Part shown: one piece after another, positions 3,853 to 13,116 of the stretch
How positions within the stretch are numbered: position 1 is the stretch's first letter
Layout: each line of letters starts with the position of its first letter
Virus record (IMG/VR): IMGVR_UViG_2667527839_000010
Strand: one strand, 5' to 3'
DNA: 14,104 bases
DNA from: a virus
Taxonomy: Duplodnaviria; Heunggongvirae; Uroviricota; Caudoviricetes
Notes under the pieces: generated by a model
Told to the model about the DNA's origin: nothing
Seen by the model: only the letters and a program-made list of their open reading frames with translations
The model's database searches: none
Position numbers and translations under genes: made by a program

Positions 3853-4232
3853 ACCAGCCGCAGGTTTCCATTTTCCCGGCAGAAATGACCACCGCGCTTT
3901 ACCGGCGGGCTATTGCTTCAGCATGGCGGCAGAAAATGCTGAACGAAACTGGCAGTGATCAGTATGGTCCTCACAGCCTGACGGTGGAGCGTATTGAAAT
4001 GGCCATTGCGCTGCATATCGAGTGCGTACTGATTAACGAGTACGGCGAAGCACAGGGCGCCGCTGCCGCGCTGGCACTGCTGACTGACATGCTGGAGCCG
4101 TCACTGCTGACCGCGCCGCCGGTACTGACCGCGCGCGGCTGTGAAGTGATGGCGGAGATGTACCGCACGCTTCCGGCGGCCTTTGATGACTTCTGCAGTA
4201 CCGGTGTGACGTTGTATCAGGGGGAAGTATGA
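3849..4232 (+). CDS. Hypothetical protein (127 aa), early operon immediately upstream of the primase
   Basis: ATG 3849 preceded by AGGAGG; stop overlaps the primase start (ATGA at 4229-4232). Confidence 0.65.
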   Translation: MNQPQVSIFPAEMTTALYRRAIASAWRQKMLNETGSDQYGPHSLTVERIEMAIALHIECVLINEYGEAQGAAAALALLTDMLEPSLLTAPPVLTARGCEVMAEMYRTLPAAFDDFCSTGVTLYQGEV

Positions 4233-6901
4233 CAATACAGACGGTTACGCAGATTTCAGCTGCCGCACGGGGGAAATGGCCCGTTATTCTCCAGATGCTG
4301 CGTATTGATGTACCTGAAAACGGCAGGCACGGTCCCTGCCCGAAATGTGGGGGCAAGGATCGTTTTCGCCTTGATGACCTTGACGGGCGCGGGACGTGGA
4401 TCTGCAGCCAGTGTGGCAATGGTGACGGTCTGGATCTGGTTAAGCTCGTAACCGGTTACAGCGTCAGAAAGGCTGCGCAGGAGGTGGCGCAGGTGCTTAA
4501 TGTGCCGGATGTGCAGGAACTGCCTGTTAAGCCTGCCAGACAAAAAGCCCCTAAACGCGACATGGGGCTTACCGTGGCGGCGCTGATGAAAGAGAGCCAC
4601 ACGGGAGAAAGCGCCTATCTGACAGGAAAAGGGTTCGCCGGATACCCGGCCTCTCTGACCGGAAGCGTGCAGCATATCAGCGGTAAGGATTTTCCTGCCG
4701 GTTCCCTGCTGTTACCACTCACGACCAACACCGGAGCCGTGACTGGTGCACAGCTTATCGCCCCGACGGGTGAAAAAAGCATACTGCCCGGCAGCACGAT
4801 GAAAGGCGCGTTTGTGTCGCTCAGCCCGTTACCGTCTGAACCACCGGTACAGGTGGTGATTACCGAAGGTTACGCTACGGCGCTGACGGTAAGTCAGCTC
4901 ACTGCCGGATGCGTAGTGGCTGCCATATCTGCGGGCAACCTGCCCAATGTGGCGCAGTCGCTGCGGGCACGCTGGCCTGAGGTAAAAATTATCATCGCCG
5001 GTGATAACGATTTTCAGGACGGAGGTGAGAATCCCGGCAGAGCCTTTGCTGAACGGGCGGCAAAAGCTGTTGGCGGCTGGATGACGCTGCCACCGGGAGA
5101 GATTAAGGCCGACTGGAATGACTTCCATCGGGAGCACGGTATTACCCGCGCCCGTGAAGCCTTTCGTAACGGTCTGGTGCTGTGCGGGGAGGGCCGCACG
5201 CAACTGCCGCACGGGTTCCGTCTTACCCAGGAATATCTCTGGTATGAAAAGCAGGTACAGCGCAACGGTGAGACGGAGATCCAGAACGTCAAAATATGCA
5301 GCCCGCTGCGCGTGACGGCAATCACCTGCGATGCCGATGGCGGTAACTTCGGACGACTGCTGGAATGGGAAGATACGTGGGGTGAGTGTCGCCGCTGGGC
5401 GATGCCGATGGAAATGCTGAGCGGCAGTGGTGAGGAACTGCGCCGGGTACTGCTGGTTAACGGGCTGTCTTATATCAGCACCACCGGTGAGGCACGCGCA
5501 CGCCTGATGGAATATATCTCACTGTGTAAACCGGAACGCCGCGTGACCTGCGTCAGTCGTACTGGCTGGCATGGTCAGGTTTACGTCCTGCAGGATGAGG
5601 TCAGCGGTGAAGGTGCAGAGGGTGTCATTCTCCAGACCACTTCCGTGCAGGGGCGTGATTTCCGCGTGTCGGGCACAACAGAGGAATGGCGGGAGCATGT
5701 ATCCCGCTACTGTACCGGCAACTCCCGCGTGGCATTTGCTGTCAGCCTGGCCTTTGCTGCACCACTGTTACGGCTGGTTGGTATGGACGGCGGCGGCTAC
5801 CACCTCAAAGGGGAATCGACAGACGGTAAGACCACCACCATGAAAGCAGCAACCTCCGTCTGCGGCGGGCCTGACTACTGGCAGACATGGCGGGCCACCG
5901 GCAACGCGCTGGAGGGATGCGCCAGCCGCCGCAACGATGCCGCCATGATGCTTGATGAGATCCGGGAAGTTGACGGACGCGAGGCAGGCAATATCGCCTA
6001 CATGCTGGCAAACGGTCAGGGCAAGGGCCGTGCCGGTACGGACGGTGAGCTGCGTACCCGTAAGCAGTGGCGCCTGTTGTTCTTTTCAACTGGCGAGTTG
6101 TCTCTGACCGAACATGCGGCAAAGGCCGGTGAGCGTACTTTTGCCGGGATGGAAGTCAGGATGATCCAGATCCCCAGCGATTCCGGGAAGTTTGGCGTTT
6201 TTGAGGAGCTGCACGGCTTCGACAGCGGCAAGGCTCTGGCAGAGCATCTTGAATGGGCCACGTCCTGCTACTACGGTTCGCCGTTCCGGGAGTGGCTGAA
6301 AGCACTGACCGCTGATCTTAACGGACTAACGGCACAGGCAAAATCGCTGATGAAGGAATATGCTGCCGCCCTGACTCCGAAAGATGCAGGCAATCAGGTG
6401 GGCCGGGCTGTGAACCGCTTTGCTCTGGTGGCGATGGCAGGTGAACTGGCAACCCGTCTGGGTATCACCGGCTGGCCTGAGGGTGAAGCACTGCGGGCAA
6501 CCCGCGTCTGCCTGAACGCATGGCTGAAAGATCGCGGGCACACCGCCAATCAGGAAGATATCGCCGCACTGGAGCAGGTTCGCAGTTTCTTTACCGCGAA
6601 TCAGTACAGCCGCTTTGCAGACTGGTATGACGAGCGCAACCGCCCCGGCAATATGGTGGGCTGGCGCAGGGTGGAGAAAGGCAGTACCGCGCAGGGCACG
6701 GAAGCTGTCACTACGTTCTATGTCATGCCGTCCGGCTGGAAAGAAATCTGCAGGGGATTTGACCCGCGCAAGGTGGCGCGTCTGTGCGCAGATCGTGGAT
6801 ACCTGCTGCCCTCCACTGATGGCAAACTCCAGACAACCATTCGCCCGCCAGAGATGAATCCCCGCAGGCTCTATGTCTTCAACAGCGAGGTGCCGGGTTA
6901 A
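4229..6901 (+). CDS. Replication primase-helicase, P4 alpha-like (zinc ribbon + TOPRIM + Walker A/B NTPase), 890 aa
   Basis: N-terminal CPKCGGKDRF...WICSQCG (CxxC..CxxC); TOPRIM-like VVITEGYATALTV and IIIAGDNDFQDGG; Walker A HLKGESTDGKTTTM and Walker B-like MMLDEIREV. Uniform coding-like composition over 2.7 kb; internal antisense ORFs are shadows. Confidence 0.9.
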   Translation: MTIQTVTQISAAARGKWPVILQMLRIDVPENGRHGPCPKCGGKDRFRLDDLDGRGTWICSQCGNGDGLDLVKLVTGYSVRKAAQEVAQVLNVPDVQELPVKPARQKAPKRDMGLTVAALMKESHTGESAYLTGKGFAGYPASLTGSVQHISGKDFPAGSLLLPLTTNTGAVTGAQLIAPTGEKSILPGSTMKGAFVSLSPLPSEPPVQVVITEGYATALTVSQLTAGCVVAAISAGNLPNVAQSLRARWPEVKIIIAGDNDFQDGGENPGRAFAERAAKAVGGWMTLPPGEIKADWNDFHREHGITRAREAFRNGLVLCGEGRTQLPHGFRLTQEYLWYEKQVQRNGETEIQNVKICSPLRVTAITCDADGGNFGRLLEWEDTWGECRRWAMPMEMLSGSGEELRRVLLVNGLSYISTTGEARARLMEYISLCKPERRVTCVSRTGWHGQVYVLQDEVSGEGAEGVILQTTSVQGRDFRVSGTTEEWREHVSRYCTGNSRVAFAVSLAFAAPLLRLVGMDGGGYHLKGESTDGKTTTMKAATSVCGGPDYWQTWRATGNALEGCASRRNDAAMMLDEIREVDGREAGNIAYMLANGQGKGRAGTDGELRTRKQWRLLFFSTGELSLTEHAAKAGERTFAGMEVRMIQIPSDSGKFGVFEELHGFDSGKALAEHLEWATSCYYGSPFREWLKALTADLNGLTAQAKSLMKEYAAALTPKDAGNQVGRAVNRFALVAMAGELATRLGITGWPEGEALRATRVCLNAWLKDRGHTANQEDIAALEQVRSFFTANQYSRFADWYDERNRPGNMVGWRRVEKGSTAQGTEAVTTFYVMPSGWKEICRGFDPRKVARLCADRGYLLPSTDGKLQTTIRPPEMNPRRLYVFNSEVPG

Positions 6902-7301: not shown

Positions 7302-8045
7302 ATGAACAACACCGCAGTGAATAACAACCTTTCCACTTTTCCGGCTGTAACGCAGCGGGCACTGGAAACCATGAACACAGCCAGAAACGCATGGCTTGAA
7401 GCACGTCGTCAGCAGAAAGCGGCAGCGGATAATATTGCGACAATCCGCCAGCGTCGCGCTGAAATGGAAGCCACGACGAACACACTGAATGAGGAGTGGC
7501 GCACGCTGTTTCGTGAAAGTCAGGGCGTGGTCTCAAAGGAAATGAAAAAACTGCGCACGGAAATTGCGCTGGGACGAGAAACGCTTGAGGATTTTGATGA
7601 GCTGCTGGCGGCTCAGGAAAGCGAAAATGCACTTTTGCCGCAGAAAGCTGCAGAATTAGCCGGAAAGTATATCCACGCGCATAACATTCTTGTGGATATT
7701 CGCGCAAAACAAATCTGGGAGGATTTTATGCAGTCGCATGGAAAAGCGCTTATTCAGACGCTGAGCCTGCTTAAATCCACAATGGGCCGGGAAGCCAGTG
7801 CCGTTGTGGGTGTGGTGAATTCAGTTAATGACCCGGACACAGTGCTGAAAGACTTTATTCATAAACATATCACCAGACCGGCTCTGGCTAACGATGCGAT
7901 GCCTGAGCAGGACCCGGTGTTTAAACTGGCGGGAGTTGCCCCGGATTATGCGGCGCGTCTGGATTTCAGTAATCAACTCTCTCCGGCAGCTATGCATAAA
8001 ATTAAGGTTCGTCAGGAACTTGCTGAGAAGGAGAAAGCAGTATGA
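7302..8045 (+). CDS. sid: Sid-like (P4 external scaffold / size-determination family), 247 aa
   Basis: ATG 7302 with AGGAG at 7292-7296. Size close to P4 Sid; shares N-terminal and central motifs with the Psu-like gene that follows (NAWLEARRQQKAA..., EDFMQSHGKALIQTL), consistent with the Sid/Psu paralogy. Family assignment is from remembered motifs and context, not alignment. Confidence 0.55.
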   Translation: MNNTAVNNNLSTFPAVTQRALETMNTARNAWLEARRQQKAAADNIATIRQRRAEMEATTNTLNEEWRTLFRESQGVVSKEMKKLRTEIALGRETLEDFDELLAAQESENALLPQKAAELAGKYIHAHNILVDIRAKQIWEDFMQSHGKALIQTLSLLKSTMGREASAVVGVVNSVNDPDTVLKDFIHKHITRPALANDAMPEQDPVFKLAGVAPDYAARLDFSNQLSPAAMHKIKVRQELAEKEKAV

Positions 8046-8593
8046 CGGCCCGAGGCACGCCTGACCAGGCACTTACCAGTTTTCGGAATGCCCGTATTCT
8101 GTGGGCCGGACATAATGAGAGCCGAAAAGCCATTGAACAACAGATAACATCTCTCCTCGCTGCCACAGAAAAACCAGCAGATTATGCCCGACAGCTCGAA
8201 TTACTGCGGGAACGTCTGGATGTGCTGAAATGGCAAATTAACTGTGCTGCGCGCGAATGCATTTACTCGCAGCATTTACTGATGGAGGCCTGCACAGAAG
8301 CCGCTCTCAGCAATTTTATGCAGGCGAATGGGGCAGCCCTGACATCTGCACTGGCTCCGTTCCTGAAGGGGCGCGGAGGGGTTGACGTTGCGTCCCGTAT
8401 ATTACGCAGTGCTCTGGTTCGCCAGCTGGCAATAACACCGCCTGAAATTGCCGGGGATTATCGTGAGATCCTGGATGAATCCGGTTTGATGCCTGACCCC
8501 GGGATGATTCGTGATTGCCAGGGTTCTTACACCCCGGCACAACATCTGCGTTTTCAGCAACGCCTGAATGACATTAACGATATACAGGAGTGA
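8042..8593 (+). CDS. psu: Psu-like (polarity suppression / capsid decoration family), 183 aa
   Basis: Start overlaps the Sid-like stop (ATGA at 8042-8045). Motifs LELLRERLDVLKWQINCAARECIYS, FMQANGAALTSALAP and YTPAQHLRFQQR resemble P4 Psu as I recall it. Confidence 0.6.
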   Translation: MTARGTPDQALTSFRNARILWAGHNESRKAIEQQITSLLAATEKPADYARQLELLRERLDVLKWQINCAARECIYSQHLLMEACTEAALSNFMQANGAALTSALAPFLKGRGGVDVASRILRSALVRQLAITPPEIAGDYREILDESGLMPDPGMIRDCQGSYTPAQHLRFQQRLNDINDIQE

Positions 8594-8598
8594 TATTA

Positions 8599-8871
8599 AT
8601 GGCACTTAAATGTCCGGAATGCGGTACAGTTGCACACGCCAGAACAGCAGCCTATGAAGCTCCGTCAGTTAAACGCTCGTGGTATCAGTGCCAGAATCTG
8701 GAATGTTCCTGCACATTTACGGCACTGGAGAGTGTGGATAAGATAATCATGAAACCCCGGCGCAATGAACAGCTATCAGACAAAGCACAATCCCCGGAAA
8801 AACAACAGAAAACGCTCAATCGCTATGGCTCCGCGTCAAAACTGTCAAGCCGTCAGCAGATTCCTGTCTGA
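8599..8871 (+). CDS. ogr: Ogr/Delta-family zinc-finger late transcription activator, 90 aa
   Basis: MALKCPECGTVAHARTAAYEAPSVKRSWYQCQNLECSCTF has the CxxC-N22-CxxC arrangement and HART/YQCQN signature of P2 Ogr / P4 Delta. ATG 8599 with AGGAG (8586-8590); the track GTG at 8590 overlaps the Psu-like stop. Confidence 0.85.
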   Translation: MALKCPECGTVAHARTAAYEAPSVKRSWYQCQNLECSCTFTALESVDKIIMKPRRNEQLSDKAQSPEKQQKTLNRYGSASKLSSRQQIPV

Positions 8872-8890: not shown

Positions 8891-8917
8891 AATCCCGGTC
8901 CAGTACCGGGATTTTTT
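8891..8917 (+). terminator. Rho-independent terminator of the late operon
   Basis: Perfect 9-bp stem aatcccggt (8891-8899) / accgggatt (8905-8913), 5-nt loop, followed by TTTT (8914-8917), 20 bp after the ogr stop. Confidence 0.6.
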
Positions 8918-9072
8918 ACCCCCTTTTCCTGGCTGACATGAGAGCGCATGAGTGCATGTCTATGGCGCATGAAAACGCATGAGTCTTATGCACCATTTTT
9001 GACGAGAAAACCCTTGTGTGCTGGCTTCTGAGACGATTAATGAGGTGCATGAAAACCAGTCTGTTAAGCGAA

Positions 9073-9100
9073 GCGGGCAGGCGTGCGGGGCTGCCCGCAC
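9073..9100. other. GC-rich palindromic element, possible cos-like site
   Basis: gcgggcag(9073-9080)-N10-ctgcccgc(9091-9098); the core ggcgtgcgggg resembles the start of P2/186 cohesive ends as I recall them, and it sits where P4 carries cos (after the late operon). Confidence 0.25.
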
Positions 9101-9278
9101 TAACGGTGATAATTGTGATGTTGCGATATCAAGAGAGATATAAGAATGCTGTATTCAATAAGGTATTGCTTTCAATTGTTAGATTTATTTTTGTTTAAAT
9201 GTCAATGGTTTAGGTGGTTGCTGGCAGCCAGTACGCTTACTTATTGAAAATCTCGCATCTTTTGCTATCCTAACCCTA

Positions 9279-9479
9279 CCTTTACGCGCGGGATAACAGG
9301 TTTATCCTTGTCGGGCGTTTCGCCAGACACTAATTTATTGTGGACATTTAGGGTTGCGCTTTAGCACTTTCAGCAAGATCCTTCATGCCACTGCGTTCCA
9401 TTCAGGATCTTGCTGAAAGTCTAAAGCGCATCCTTTAGGTAAAGGGGTCGAAGGTGGCTGGTTAGCCACCTTTTCTTTT
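9279..9479 (+). ncRNA. Candidate retron msr-msd non-coding RNA (boundaries tentative)
   Basis: Structured leader upstream of the effector-RT operon. Possible promoter: TTGAAA (9244-9249), 16 bp, TGcTATCCT (9263-9271). Short hairpins ggataa-caggt-ttatcc (9291-9307) and gggcg-ttt-cgcc. Long hairpin with arms 9356-9382 and 9404-9429 (26/27 bp complementary, one bulge, 21-nt loop) as candidate msd. Possible short a1/a2 pair cctttac (9279-9285) / gtaaagg (9439-9445), only 7 bp. No covariance model was run. Confidence 0.4.
9453..9479 (+). terminator. Intrinsic-terminator-like hairpin between the ncRNA region and the effector gene (possible attenuator)
   Basis: 7-bp stem ggtggct (9453-9459) / agccacc (9464-9470), 4-nt loop, then TTTTCTTTT (9471-9479); the effector SD (GGAG 9481-9484) and start (9499) follow directly. 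Confidence 0.5.
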
Positions 9480-9498
9480 GGAGTAGGGGGTCACAAGG

Positions 9499-10485
9499 GT
9501 GAGTGATTCTGCATATATGAATGCATTACAAGAGCAGTTTGGAGATTTGAAATATTCAAATTTCACTGTTCAGTTCATGCCTCCTATTATTTTTGTTTGT
9601 GGTGGGCCGATAAATTCCACTCCAATGAGTGTACGAGACCACATATTTACTTATGTAGCAGGCCACAAACCTGAATTGTCAGATTCTCTTATTTTAGCTG
9701 AGAACTTCCATGACTACTTCAGAGAGGGGGCATATTCAGATCTAATGAGCTTTGAAGATGATATTGCAAATATTTCAACATTAGTTGTTATCTGTTTAGA
9801 AAGTGCAGGTTCGTTAGTTGAGCTTGGATTATTTGTTAATAGGAAGTCTCTAGCTCAAAAATTGCATGTAGTCGCACCATTTGAGGAGATTGAGGGAAAT
9901 GAACGAAAAAATATTCCTGCTAGATCTTCTTTTATATATTTAGGCCCTTTGGAGTATCTTAAAAAAATAGATGAGGCCTCAGTATCAGTTTATCCATGGC
10001 CAAAATCGGATCGTATGAAATATGATGAGGTTGAGCTTATCTACCATGATATTCATTCTAGATTAAAACGTGTAAAAAAAACGGAGCGATATAACCCTGA
10101 AAATACTGGGCACCTAGCTATATTGATTTACGAAATAATCCTTTTATCAGAACCAATCAAGAAAAGCGAAATAGAGTGGGCACTATACTGTATGGATATA
10201 GATGTGCCACAAAAAATAATATCTCGTTTACTTTATTTGCTTGAAAAGATGAAATTAACCTCATCATTATCTTACAGTGGTACAGACTACTTTTATTCCC
10301 GAGGGCATAGAGAGAGTAAACTTAAATTTGGTATCAGTGCTAGTGGTAAAATAAAGGATTCTATGAATATTAAGGTTGCAATCCGACAATCTTACTTAAG
10401 TATGGATGCTAAAGATATGGACGAGACTGCAAAAAAAAGGAAAAATGCTCTAAATCAAATCAATATCGTGCGTGGAGGGGCTTAG
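9499..10485 (+). CDS. Retron effector: nucleoside 2-deoxyribosyltransferase-like (NDT-like) domain protein with a C-terminal putative DNA-binding region, 328 aa
   Basis: N-terminal PIIFVCGGP and STLVVICLESAGSLVELGLFV fit the NDT fold (Rossmann-like strand, then a conserved Glu in a VELG context); C-terminal half is a separate, helix-rich region. GTG start at 9499 with GGAG/AGGGGG upstream; alternative ATG at 9517. Stop TAG 10483-10485 abuts the RT start. Confidence 0.8.
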   Translation: MSDSAYMNALQEQFGDLKYSNFTVQFMPPIIFVCGGPINSTPMSVRDHIFTYVAGHKPELSDSLILAENFHDYFREGAYSDLMSFEDDIANISTLVVICLESAGSLVELGLFVNRKSLAQKLHVVAPFEEIEGNERKNIPARSSFIYLGPLEYLKKIDEASVSVYPWPKSDRMKYDEVELIYHDIHSRLKRVKKTERYNPENTGHLAILIYEIILLSEPIKKSEIEWALYCMDIDVPQKIISRLLYLLEKMKLTSSLSYSGTDYFYSRGHRESKLKFGISASGKIKDSMNIKVAIRQSYLSMDAKDMDETAKKRKNALNQINIVRGGA

Positions 10486-10486
10486 A

Positions 10487-11419
10487 ATGGAGTTGCTAAG
10501 TTATATTTCAAAAGGTCTTTTTCTTAGCGAAGAAGAGGCTAAAAGGTATATTGTTACTATTCCACGCAGATATAAAATTTATCCTATCGCCAAAAGAAAT
10601 GGTAATGGATATAGATTAATTGCACAACCAGCTAGGCAAGTTAAAGCCTTACAGAAGGTAGTAATCAATCATATGTTGGCTAATTTGAAAGTTCATGAAA
10701 ATGCTTTCGCTTATGAAGCCGATAAAAGTATTAGATCTAATGCGTTAATGCATTGTAATAATGATTATTTGCTTAAAATGGATTTTAAAAACTTTTTTAT
10801 GAGTATCAAACCCCATAATCTTTTATCTGTCTTAAAAGATTATGGCGTTGAACTAACTGATACTGATATCTTTGTTCTTAAAAATCTTTTCTTCTGGAAG
10901 TTAAGAAGAAATAGCCCATTACGCCTAAGTGTTGGAGCACCTTCTTCTCCCATTATTTCAAATGCAGTAATGTATTTCTTCGATGAGGAAATATCGAAAA
11001 GATGCAAGGATTTGGATATTACCTACTCAAGGTATGCTGATGATCTTACGTTTAGCACCAAAGTCAAAGGAGCTTTATTTGATGTTCCTAAGTTAGTAAG
11101 GGAAGTTCTTAACGTAGTAAATCTTAGGAATATTAAAATAAACCATGAGAAAACAGTTTTTACCTCAAGGAAGTTTAATAGACATGTAACTGGTGTAACT
11201 ATTACGACTGATGGTTATTTGTCTTTAGGTCGTGATAGAAAGCGTCTTTTAAGAAGTAAAATACATTATTACGTGTGTGGGGTTTTATCTGAGAAAGAAA
11301 TTCTAACCCTTAAAGGAGAATTAGGCTATGCGAAATTTATTGAACATAAATTCTTTACCTCCATGATTAAGAAATATGGGGATGATGTAATCAGCGAAAT
11401 TTCAAAATATGAAATTTAA
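10487..11419 (+). CDS. ret: Retron-type reverse transcriptase, 310 aa from ATG 10487 (315 aa if GTG 10472)
   Basis: Retron RT motifs: YRLIAQPARQVKALQKVV; LLKMDFKNFFMSI (cf. DxxxFFPSI); SVGAPSSPIISNAVMYFFD (cf. QGAPTSP); YSRYADDLTFS (YADD); NHEKT; VTGVTIT (retron-specific VTG). GGAGG at 10474-10478 precedes ATG 10487. AT-rich composition matches the effector gene. Confidence 0.9.
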   Translation: MELLSYISKGLFLSEEEAKRYIVTIPRRYKIYPIAKRNGNGYRLIAQPARQVKALQKVVINHMLANLKVHENAFAYEADKSIRSNALMHCNNDYLLKMDFKNFFMSIKPHNLLSVLKDYGVELTDTDIFVLKNLFFWKLRRNSPLRLSVGAPSSPIISNAVMYFFDEEISKRCKDLDITYSRYADDLTFSTKVKGALFDVPKLVREVLNVVNLRNIKINHEKTVFTSRKFNRHVTGVTITTDGYLSLGRDRKRLLRSKIHYYVCGVLSEKEILTLKGELGYAKFIEHKFFTSMIKKYGDDVISEISKYEI

Positions 11420-11664
11420 TAGCTTGTTGTCCTAATAAATCAGCATGACTTTATCTAGCTTGCGCAAGGTTGGTTCAGAGGTTTGGTTGTTCTGGTTAGG
11501 CTCTGTAAGACGGAACCTAACTAGGCAACTCTATCTTGCTAATTCATTTATTGTGCTAGTTAGCAACAATAAGATTTTGTTGGGGGCACAAAATGGGGCA
11601 CAAGTCATAAGCTATAAAATTTTTATCATCATGTTCAATGAGTTATATAGTTATTCTATTCCGG

Positions 11665-11696
11665 CCTTCGCACCTTCGCACCTTCGCACCTTCGCA
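11665..11696. repeat. Perfect tandem repeat (CCTTCGCA)x4 within a tRNA-Leu 3'-end-like sequence (putative degenerate attR)
   Basis: ccttcgca at 11665-11672, 11673-11680, 11681-11688, 11689-11696, preceded by ttctattccgg and followed by ccatcgg. The context TTCtAtTCCGGCCTTCG-CACC...A resembles the 3' end of E. coli tRNA-Leu(CAA) leuX (..TTCGAGTCCGGCCTTCGGCACCA) as I remember it. Confidence 0.85.
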
Positions 11697-11712
11697 CCAT
11701 CGGAACATCAAT

Positions 11713-11735
11713 AGACGTCAACGGACGTTTTTTTT
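11713..11735 (+). terminator. Short hairpin plus T8 run downstream of the retron/att region
   Basis: acgtc (11715-11719) / gacgt (11724-11728), 4-nt loop, then 8 T (11728-11735). The stem is short, so confidence is moderate. Confidence 0.4.
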
Positions 11736-12087: not shown

Positions 12088-12152
12088 TGGTGATCCTCAA
12101 ATATCATTGTATGGCGGCATTGATCGTTTCCAGCAACCTTTACTTACTCACT

Positions 12153-12386
12153 TCAAACTGCATCCTCGTAGACTGTTCCACTACAATAATCGAAAAGGCG
12201 CGGATGTCCATTCAGGTATCCCGCTAATACGTATAGCAATAACAATGGTTTATGCGGTGCGCGCTGTTCACCCTTATGCCAGATTTTTATATTGGCAATT
12301 GCCTGCTGTAGCGATTTACTGGAAGCCATTGATATCCCTGGCAGTGAAATAATTGCGATCATGCTCGCAAATTTTCTGCTGTTCAA
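12153..12386 (-). CDS. Hypothetical small protein (77 aa), hydrophobic N-terminus
   Basis: Open frame only; overlapped on the + strand by an implausible 81-aa ORF (12107-12352); could be a gene remnant. Confidence 0.25.
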   Translation of the reverse strand: MNSRKFASMIAIISLPGISMASSKSLQQAIANIKIWHKGEQRAPHKPLLLLYVLAGYLNGHPRLFDYCSGTVYEDAV

Positions 12387-12465
12387 GCCTGCAAGTGAAG
12401 ATATATTACCTTGATCTCATTTGTTTTTTTGCTGCTTGTTCTGAGAACGTATAAGGACATTCTCC

Positions 12466-13116
12466 ATGAATAAACTCCCCGATCATCTTCCTCGGCGGTA
12501 TATCATCAAAGCTATTCATTTATGGGATGCGGGAGAAACTCATCAGTTCCAGCCTGCACGGTTGTATGAGATTGAATATCATGGCCGACGTTACCCCTCG
12601 AAGGCGATTGCTGGTATCGCAGCGACATTGATGACGGGGACGCAATTTACCCCTGCGGATTTCACCGGCGGAATAAAATCTAAATGCGTCAAGCTACTTA
12701 TAGATCAGGGATTTCATATTCATCAGGATAAAGCCGCTGCGGCTCCCATAGCCGATGTTCTGTTCCCGGATGAGTTGCCGTCGCAGGGGACCTACGTTGA
12801 AGGTGCGGCGATAAAGGTGACGGTAAACCGCTATGAACGCGATAAAAAAGCTCGCGAGAAAGCAGTCGAACATCACGGATGCCAGTGCAACGTATGCGGC
12901 GTTGATCTGGTGAAGATCTATGGCGATATCGCTGAGGGTTTTATCCATATGCATCACCTGGTGCCGCTTTCAGCCATTAAAGAGGATTACCAGCTGGATC
13001 CAGTTAATGATTTACTTCCTGTGTGCCCTAATTGCCATGCGATGCTGCACCGGCGCAAACCACCGTTTACGCCGGAGGAGTTAAAAGCGCTGATGGATGC
13101 GAATAAATCAAATTAA
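12466..13116 (+). CDS. HNH endonuclease family protein (McrA-like C-terminal HNH nuclease with an N-terminal putative DNA-recognition domain), 216 aa
   Basis: C-terminal CQCNVCGVDL...FIHMHHLVPLS...DPVNDLLPVCPNCHAML matches the HNH zinc-finger nuclease motif. ATG 12466 with AAGGA (12453-12457). Confidence 0.8.
   Translation: MNKLPDHLPRRYIIKAIHLWDAGETHQFQPARLYEIEYHGRRYPSKAIAGIAATLMTGTQFTPADFTGGIKSKCVKLLIDQGFHIHQDKAAAAPIADVLFPDELPSQGTYVEGAAIKVTVNRYERDKKAREKAVEHHGCQCNVCGVDLVKIYGDIAEGFIHMHHLVPLSAIKEDYQLDPVNDLLPVCPNCHAMLHRRKPPFTPEELKALMDANKSN

Follow-up and report, generated by a model that had tools for sequence, protein, structure and literature searches.

The closest analogue of the arrangement described here is found in the type III toxin-antitoxin systems (ToxIN, CptIN, and TenpIN), in which a promoter, an antitoxic RNA gene, a terminator, and a toxin gene follow one another in this order (PMC3401426). 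The same order of promoter, RNA, terminator, and toxin can be read directly from a retron locus carried by a satellite prophage, and in both, defence works by abortive infection and a component derived from RNA neutralizes a protein toxin. They differ in their parts: the RNA of the retron is an msr-msd transcript that needs reverse transcription, its antitoxin consists of the reverse transcriptase (RT) together with msDNA, and its toxin is NDT-like rather than an endoribonuclease of the ToxN/CptN/TenpN kind; moreover, tandem RNA repeats are lacking. The retron locus with its terminator is an analogue, and not a member, of the type III class.

The element itself has been catalogued under another name. 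STnc400 is a Salmonella sRNA from the STM3844/STM3845 spacer, ahead of the St85 effector, and was listed by Sittka et al. 2008 (PMC2515195); it had earlier been predicted as an orphan promoter/terminator pair and was then recovered as cDNA (PMC2515195). In terms of the retron, it corresponds to the 3' half of the St85/Sen2 ncRNA. On Northern blots, a stable species of ~55 nt was dominant and a band of ~190 nt was faint, and the RNA was described as "almost constitutively expressed" (PMC2515195). Its identity as a part of a retron is absent from the Rfam description line, the words "retron" and "msDNA" occur nowhere in PMC2515195, and neither source discusses read-through into the effector. In V. 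cholerae, the "msr" RNA was reported as a discrete transcript of >100 nt ending upstream of the next ORF (Livny and Waldor 2010, PMC2836559), while RcaT was detectably expressed from the native Sen2 operon (Bobonis et al., bioRxiv 10.1101/2020.06.22.160168). Taken together, these data speak for read-through in the homologues along with termination or processing of the RNA at the hairpin. Reviews treat the retron locus as one polycistronic cassette (PMC6868368); the retron papers examined call it a single operon and leave a terminator unmentioned, and nowhere in the retron literature searched was a native terminator described after msd.

The stretch of DNA analyzed here (the window, 14,104 nucleotides) is a P4-like satellite prophage according to its Pfam matches, and the retron sits downstream of the delta gene. 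Among 5426 complete E. coli genomes, 156 carry an identical copy of the retron locus; in the "phages" collection, neither the retron nor the spacer between delta and the retron was matched. The features of the host element that frame the retron are the following:

4229-6901, primase (Pfam)
8042-8593, Psu (Pfam)
8590-8871, P4-type Delta ORF (Pfam Ogr_Delta)
8893-8917, plus strand, intrinsic terminator after delta, TCCCGGTCCAGTACCGGGA followed by TTTTTT (d = 15.2)
11715-11735, plus strand, weak terminator-like hairpin, ACGTCAACGGACGT followed by TTTTTTT (d = -3.9)

The strong predicted terminator at 8893-8917 lies 22 nt past delta and insulates the retron unit from transcription of the satellite late operon upstream. 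The retron operon may end at the weak hairpin at 11715-11735. Between the delta terminator and the retron promoter, a (G)CATGA(A/G)AAC-like motif recurs several times (8937-8953, 8964-8984, and 9044-9064, plus strand). A GC-rich segment at ~9078-9098, GGCGTGCGGGGCTGCCCGCAC, resembles a P2/P4 cos end; the phage collection gave no match for it. Downstream of the RT, an 89-aa ORF (region 11445-11735, plus strand) has no Pfam or PADLOC match and is not called by RefSeq in the identical locus; the weak hairpin at 11715-11735 comes after it. Farther on, an HNH endonuclease gene (12466-13116, within the region 12107-13116) matches Pfam HNH and, weakly, PADLOC mREase_IV; in the RefSeq record it adjoins a fragment annotated as "phosphorothioated DNA-binding restriction endonuclease", and the stretch from there to the nan (sialate esterase) genes contains no integrase gene. 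The HNH region may constitute a second, partly decayed defence module of the same satellite hotspot.

The retron unit comprises a promoter, a noncoding RNA (ncRNA), an effector, and an RT, with the order ncRNA-effector-RT read directly from the window:

9244-9271, plus strand, retron promoter: -35 TTGAAA at 9244-9249, 16-nt spacer, extended -10 TGcTATCCT at 9263-9271 (promoter scan)
9278-9349, plus strand, msr part: a1 repeat at 9279-9285, stem-loops at 9290-9308 and 9309-9329 (minimum free energy fold)
9350-9445, plus strand, msd part: long hairpin at 9350-9435, a2 repeat at 9439-9445 pairing with a1 (minimum free energy fold)
9485-9501, plus strand, effector ribosome-binding site (RBS) AGGGGG at 9485-9490 and GTG start codon at 9499-9501 (alignment of relatives; RefSeq start)
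9499-10485, plus strand, NDT-like effector of the St85/RcaT family, 328 aa (PADLOC NDT_II-A, 1.6e-87)
10487-11419, plus strand, retron RT, 310 aa (Pfam RVT_1, 3.1e-27; PADLOC RT_II-A, 9.7e-121)

The promoter implies a transcription start at ~9275-9278, and the pattern TTGA...TGnTATnCT is kept in the alignment with Klebsiella, Pantoea, Dickeya, Providencia, and Rahnella relatives. The fold of 9275-9482 is that of a textbook retron ncRNA with a separate 3' hairpin at 9450-9473, and the 246-nt fold of the ncRNA region scores z = -7. Homologues of the effector belong to Pfam PF28093 (the PF28093/STM3845 family) and are named "retron St85 family effector", as is the effector in the RefSeq record of the identical locus (GTG start at 9499; RT at 10487-11419); homologues of the RT are named retron St85 family RT. 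The RT clade, the NDT-like effector, a type with a C-terminal DNA-binding region, between ncRNA and RT, and the msr-msd ncRNA place the locus among the type II-A1 retrons (St85/Sen2, Ec73, Vc81). In a 315-aa frame, the YADD aspartates of the RT fall at 190/191, off by one from the published D189/D190 of Ec73; no sequence matching the retron to Ec73 was found in the papers or in the one supplement searched. The ATG of the RT (10487) lies 1 nt past the effector stop codon; in relatives, the two genes are either 1 nt apart or overlap by 4-17 nt, a spacing that suggests translational coupling of the RT to the effector.

Comparison with Rfam models identifies the region between msr and the effector as a relative of STnc400. 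RF02058 (STnc400) matches 9349-9485 over the full model (1-125) with 55.4 bits (E 3.9e-10), below its gathering threshold of 80, and RF00170 (msr) matches 9278-9344 with 42.2 bits against a threshold of 52 (E 2.6e-6). The consensus of RF02058 consists of the long msd hairpin, CUAG-UAAAGAGU (a2), a second hairpin, and a U-rich tail; in the window, the long hairpin, the UAAAGRG motif, the second hairpin, and the U-rich tail all occur directly 3' of msr, and the 3' hairpin aligns to the second hairpin of the model (positions 88-116). In six relatives, RF02058 scores 87-127 bits, again directly 3' of the RF00170 msr. The window copy differs from Salmonella STnc400 in belonging to a divergent clade, with another stem sequence and a longer msd loop, and it is a homologous, sub-threshold, divergent member of the catalogued element. 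The terminator is thereby a new copy of one already catalogued in Salmonella as STnc400, not new in kind. Rfam splits the retron ncRNA into msr and STnc400; the clade of the window lies below both gathering thresholds and is therefore missed by standard annotation.

The 3' hairpin and its tail are as follows:

9450-9473, plus strand, terminator stem-loop of 10 pairs with the loop GGTT at 9460-9463 (fold and terminator scan)
9471-9479, plus strand, U-tract TTTTCTTTT, predicted region of the RNA 3' end (tail score 4.34)

Positions 9450-9483 read GAAGGTGGCT GGTT AGCCACCTTT TCTTTT GGAG. The core stem GGTGGCT/AGCCACC (9453-9459 / 9464-9470) has 7 bp, five of them G-C, and is lengthened by A-U, A-U, and G.U to the 10 pairs; the first two or three T's of the U-tract are able to pair with the AA at the base of the stem. 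The energy of the core hairpin is -11.1 kcal/mol, and the fold of the surrounding 61 nt reaches -20 kcal/mol (z = -2.5; 3 of 200 shuffles were equally good). The hairpin starts 5 nt past a2, and the U-tract ends 20 nt ahead of the effector GTG at 9499, ~5 nt from the effector RBS. The U-tract is identical in the alignment with Klebsiella, Pantoea, and Dickeya relatives; it is interrupted by one C (UUUUCUUUU), and the termination efficiency of such a tract is not reliably computable. A 3' end at this tract gives a predicted ncRNA of ~200 nt.

On neither strand of the window is there a better candidate for an intrinsic terminator than this hairpin. Its G+C-rich stem-loop is followed directly by a U-tract, with a promoter-like site on the same strand ~200 nt upstream and untranslated RNA between them. 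A sequence-only reading of this DNA had already described a canonical intrinsic terminator with a 7-bp GC-rich stem and a 4-nt loop, and that description is borne out. A consensus terminator scan ranked the hairpin first among 18 terminator-like sites in the window, and a hairpin-plus-T-tail discriminant gave d = 21.6, the highest value on both strands of the 14-kb window, with one other site above zero (the delta terminator) and none of 24 dinucleotide shuffles equal to it. The discriminant follows the form of d'Aubenton Carafa et al. 1990 but uses ViennaRNA energies, and its values are meaningful only against shuffles. The reading of the site as a bidirectional terminator was rejected for the window, as the minus-strand stem is then followed by CGACCCCTTTACC and has no T-run. 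That the hairpin arose by chance, or is a terminator left behind by the P4-like host element and unconnected with the retron, would agree with the overall yield of the consensus scan, which shows no enrichment (18 sites versus 14.9 +/- 3.9 expected in shuffles); however, the hairpin is the top-ranked site, it lies within the curated Rfam model RF02058, and it stays with the retron whether the setting is a chromosome, a plasmid, an ICE-like element, or a satellite. This explanation is hardly credible and is already contradicted by the comparative data.

The same anatomy bears on translation of the effector. The range first proposed for the hairpin, 9453-9498, does contain it, but takes in the spacer and the RBS as well. 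The terminator was also said to end 2 nt before the effector Shine-Dalgarno (SD) sequence. This point needs correction: the conserved SD is AGGGGG at 9485-9490, 8 nt before the GTG, and not the GGAG that abuts the U-tract (9480-9483), for which E. coli N9 has GGAA and which the aligned relatives do not keep. In the 61-nt fold, CUUUUGG pairs with a downstream CAAGGG, and the effector start is a weak GTG or TTG in most relatives (L004-L027, L031-L042; ATG is rare). Both features might be taken to mean that the hairpin and its flank control effector translation by occlusion of the RBS. On the other hand, the SD lies outside the terminator stem, relatives do not share the weak downstream helix, and the distance from hairpin to start codon varies from ~15 to 70 nt among relatives, so that control by occlusion seems very improbable. 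The conserved weak start codon is itself consistent with a low level of toxin translation.

Relatives gathered through the effector protein, DNA searches, and the RT gave 41 loci with effector identities of 29-90%. The stretch scored in each was the 75 nt past the a2 motif …CCTYTAG(G)TAAAGRG, and 24 dinucleotide shuffles per locus (984 in total) served as controls. The discriminant exceeded 0 in 27 of the 41 loci and 10 in 19 of them, compared with 0.3% and 0% of the shuffles (n = 984). In 35 loci, the native sequence scored better than all 24 of its own shuffles. A hairpin, usually accompanied by a U-tract, is found at the equivalent position in ~85% of the 41 relatives. The hairpin lies 3-15 nt past a2 and usually 15-40 nt ahead of the start codon. 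Its stem sequences, by inspection, fall into roughly 20 unrelated ones between lineages (e.g., GGTGGC, ACGGGCC, CGAGCAA, GTGCGGGC, GCGACCC, GAGAC, CGGCCTCC, and GGTGTAAGC), and such unrelated stems at a kept position are the signature of selection on structure. The expectation that a hairpin separates the ncRNA from the effector start is thereby extended to the whole family, in which position and structure are kept and sequence is not. RNAalifold predicted no pairs on a MAFFT alignment of 22 a2-to-start segments, because the unrelated stems do not align by sequence; conservation was judged by the hairpin and tail scores of each locus against the shuffle controls. When metagenome and viral contigs were scanned for exact 15-mers (GGCGTTTCGCCAGAC), ~200 loci came up, nearly all of them chance matches, and only L043-L046 were real retrons. 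One of these, L046 (IMG/VR contig 2558860224_000002, oriented ~30-160), has most of the msd hairpin deleted (…GCAAATCGGCCGCATCC…), with the a2 motif, terminator, effector, and RT all intact.

Some relatives depart from the common pattern. The hairpin has a poor or absent U-tract in Citrobacter L040, Yersinia L041, L017, L021, L042, and the type I-A retron of Klebsiella (L249), and it may have a role independent of termination. Four relatives (L022, L025, L028, and L030) have no hairpin at all, which indicates that the element is not obligatory; L028 and L030 are the most divergent loci, and in them the effector begins directly past a2. The strong hairpins that stand without a usable U-tract in L040, L041, L017, and L249 are what would be expected if the hairpin were mainly an element of RNA stability or processing, with near-constant read-through, cutting of the long transcript, a block to 3' exonucleases, and accumulation of the ncRNA or of an a2-hairpin fragment. 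The Salmonella Northern pattern, with its dominant ~55-nt processed species and only faint ~190-nt band, is equally compatible with processing. Nevertheless, about two thirds of the loci have a T-rich tail right past the stem (tail scores 3.7-5.7), which a stabilizer does not need, and shuffles of the same composition almost never give a hairpin plus tail. A mainly stabilizing or processing function is judged unlikely as an alternative, and the roles of stabilizer and terminator are not mutually exclusive. It is also conceivable, though unlikely, that the a2-plus-hairpin fragment (~45-55 nt) left after RNase H takes the msd template corresponds to the abundant ~55-nt STnc400 species of Salmonella, and that it stays paired to a1 in the mature complex.

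Whether termination is switched or constitutive can be approached from the folds. The sequence-only reading had regarded the hairpin as a possible attenuator; the part of that proposal concerning partial termination is supported, but an attenuator calls for an alternative antiterminator, and in the folds no conserved antiterminator competing for the 5' arm of the terminator was found. Within the full ncRNA, the stem of the terminator is paired with a probability of 0.98 in the window and of at least 0.95 in 34 of 36 relatives. Regulation could act through an antiterminator fold, or through the RT or another factor on the nascent ncRNA that switches termination in response to a signal. In the clade of the window, the 5' arm (GAAGGUGG) is similar to a2 (UAAAGGGG), and pairing with a1 is possible in principle. 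This resemblance is absent in the other clades with their unrelated stems; the high stem probabilities and the nearly constitutive expression reported for STnc400 (PMC2515195) likewise speak against a regulated attenuator, which we consider a distinctly unlikely reading. As no antiterminator is predicted, a constitutive, leaky terminator is favored over a switched one.

That termination must be partial follows from the absence of a second promoter. The promoter scan found no promoter-like site at 9473-9499; with no promoter downstream of the hairpin, transcripts of the effector and RT must arise by read-through, and partial termination is logically required. The earlier suggestion that partial termination leaves the ncRNA in excess over the effector/RT mRNA gains support, by inference, from the lack of room for a downstream promoter, the ~190-nt RNA of the homologue, and the fact that the effector is still expressed.

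The role in control of the toxin that had been attached to the hairpin is upheld as far as its position between ncRNA and effector is concerned, but it is not particular to toxins, as type I-A retrons have the same terminator before the RT. RT-based look-ups for type I-A retrons gave II-A1 loci alone, and further II-A1 loci also carry the terminator; tblastn of plasmids then found type I-A members. All three type I-A (Ec78/PtuAB) retrons have a hairpin, with or without a U-tract, between a2 and the RT start:

L249, 4456-4500, Klebsiella plasmid: GC hairpin with a weak CATTTTC tail
L250, 4454-4500, type I-A hairpin region
L251, 2939-3000, type I-A hairpin region

The discriminant is 32.9 for the type I-A hairpin of Vibrio pectenicida and 9.1 for that of Acinetobacter baumannii. 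These retrons share with the window the msr (RF00170, 58-80 bits), the RT clade, the a2 motif TAAAGAG, and a hairpin directly past a2, and differ in their order, ncRNA-RT-PtuA-PtuB, which puts the terminator ahead of the RT and not of a toxin. Ec86 (Eco1, type II-A3) resembles the present retron in combining an msr-msd ncRNA with an RT and an effector of the NDT type, and differs in its order effector-ncRNA-RT and in its ncRNA/RT clade; there, a2 (GGGTGCGCA) is followed by 6 nt to the RT ATG, with no hairpin and no U-tract between. Because it is shared with type I-A, the terminator belongs to the IA/IIA1 ncRNA module regardless of the protein gene that follows, and is not a toxin-specific device. 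As judged from these gene orders, it appears to set the ncRNA against all of the protein-coding message.

The 3' end of the retron ncRNA is thus probably formed by the hairpin and U-tract, acting together as a Rho-independent terminator that is constitutive and leaky. According to this model, transcription would start at the retron's own promoter (~9275-9278), and the polymerase would pass msr, msd, and a2. The majority of RNA polymerases would be released at 9471-9479, giving a discrete ncRNA of ~200 nt, and the 3' hairpin would also shield this RNA from 3' exonucleases. Message for the effector and for the RT, which is translationally coupled to it, would come solely from the minority that reads through. 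One promoter could in this way supply much ncRNA, which would act as template and primer for multicopy msDNA, and little message for toxin and RT. An excess of ncRNA would favor the loading of every RT with msDNA, and the effector would be kept neutralized. We infer the termination efficiency, the stoichiometry, and the consequences of the hairpin for toxicity.

It is doubtful that the read-through fraction represents the set-point between toxin and antitoxin and a possible sensing point for infection. If this were true, anything that alters intrinsic termination, or transcription itself, in an infected cell would tip the balance between ncRNA/msDNA and effector/RT and free the toxin; candidate triggers would then be antiterminators of the phage, a modified RNA polymerase, and host shut-off.

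The general understanding of retrons is unchanged by these results, and the gain lies mainly in annotation and in the stoichiometry of the retron. A conserved leaky terminator past a2 would explain how one promoter gives multicopy ncRNA and msDNA, yet little toxin and RT. It would be of use for annotation, for defining the native 3' end of the ncRNA, and for engineered retrons, whose DNA production is limited by the ncRNA:RT ratio.
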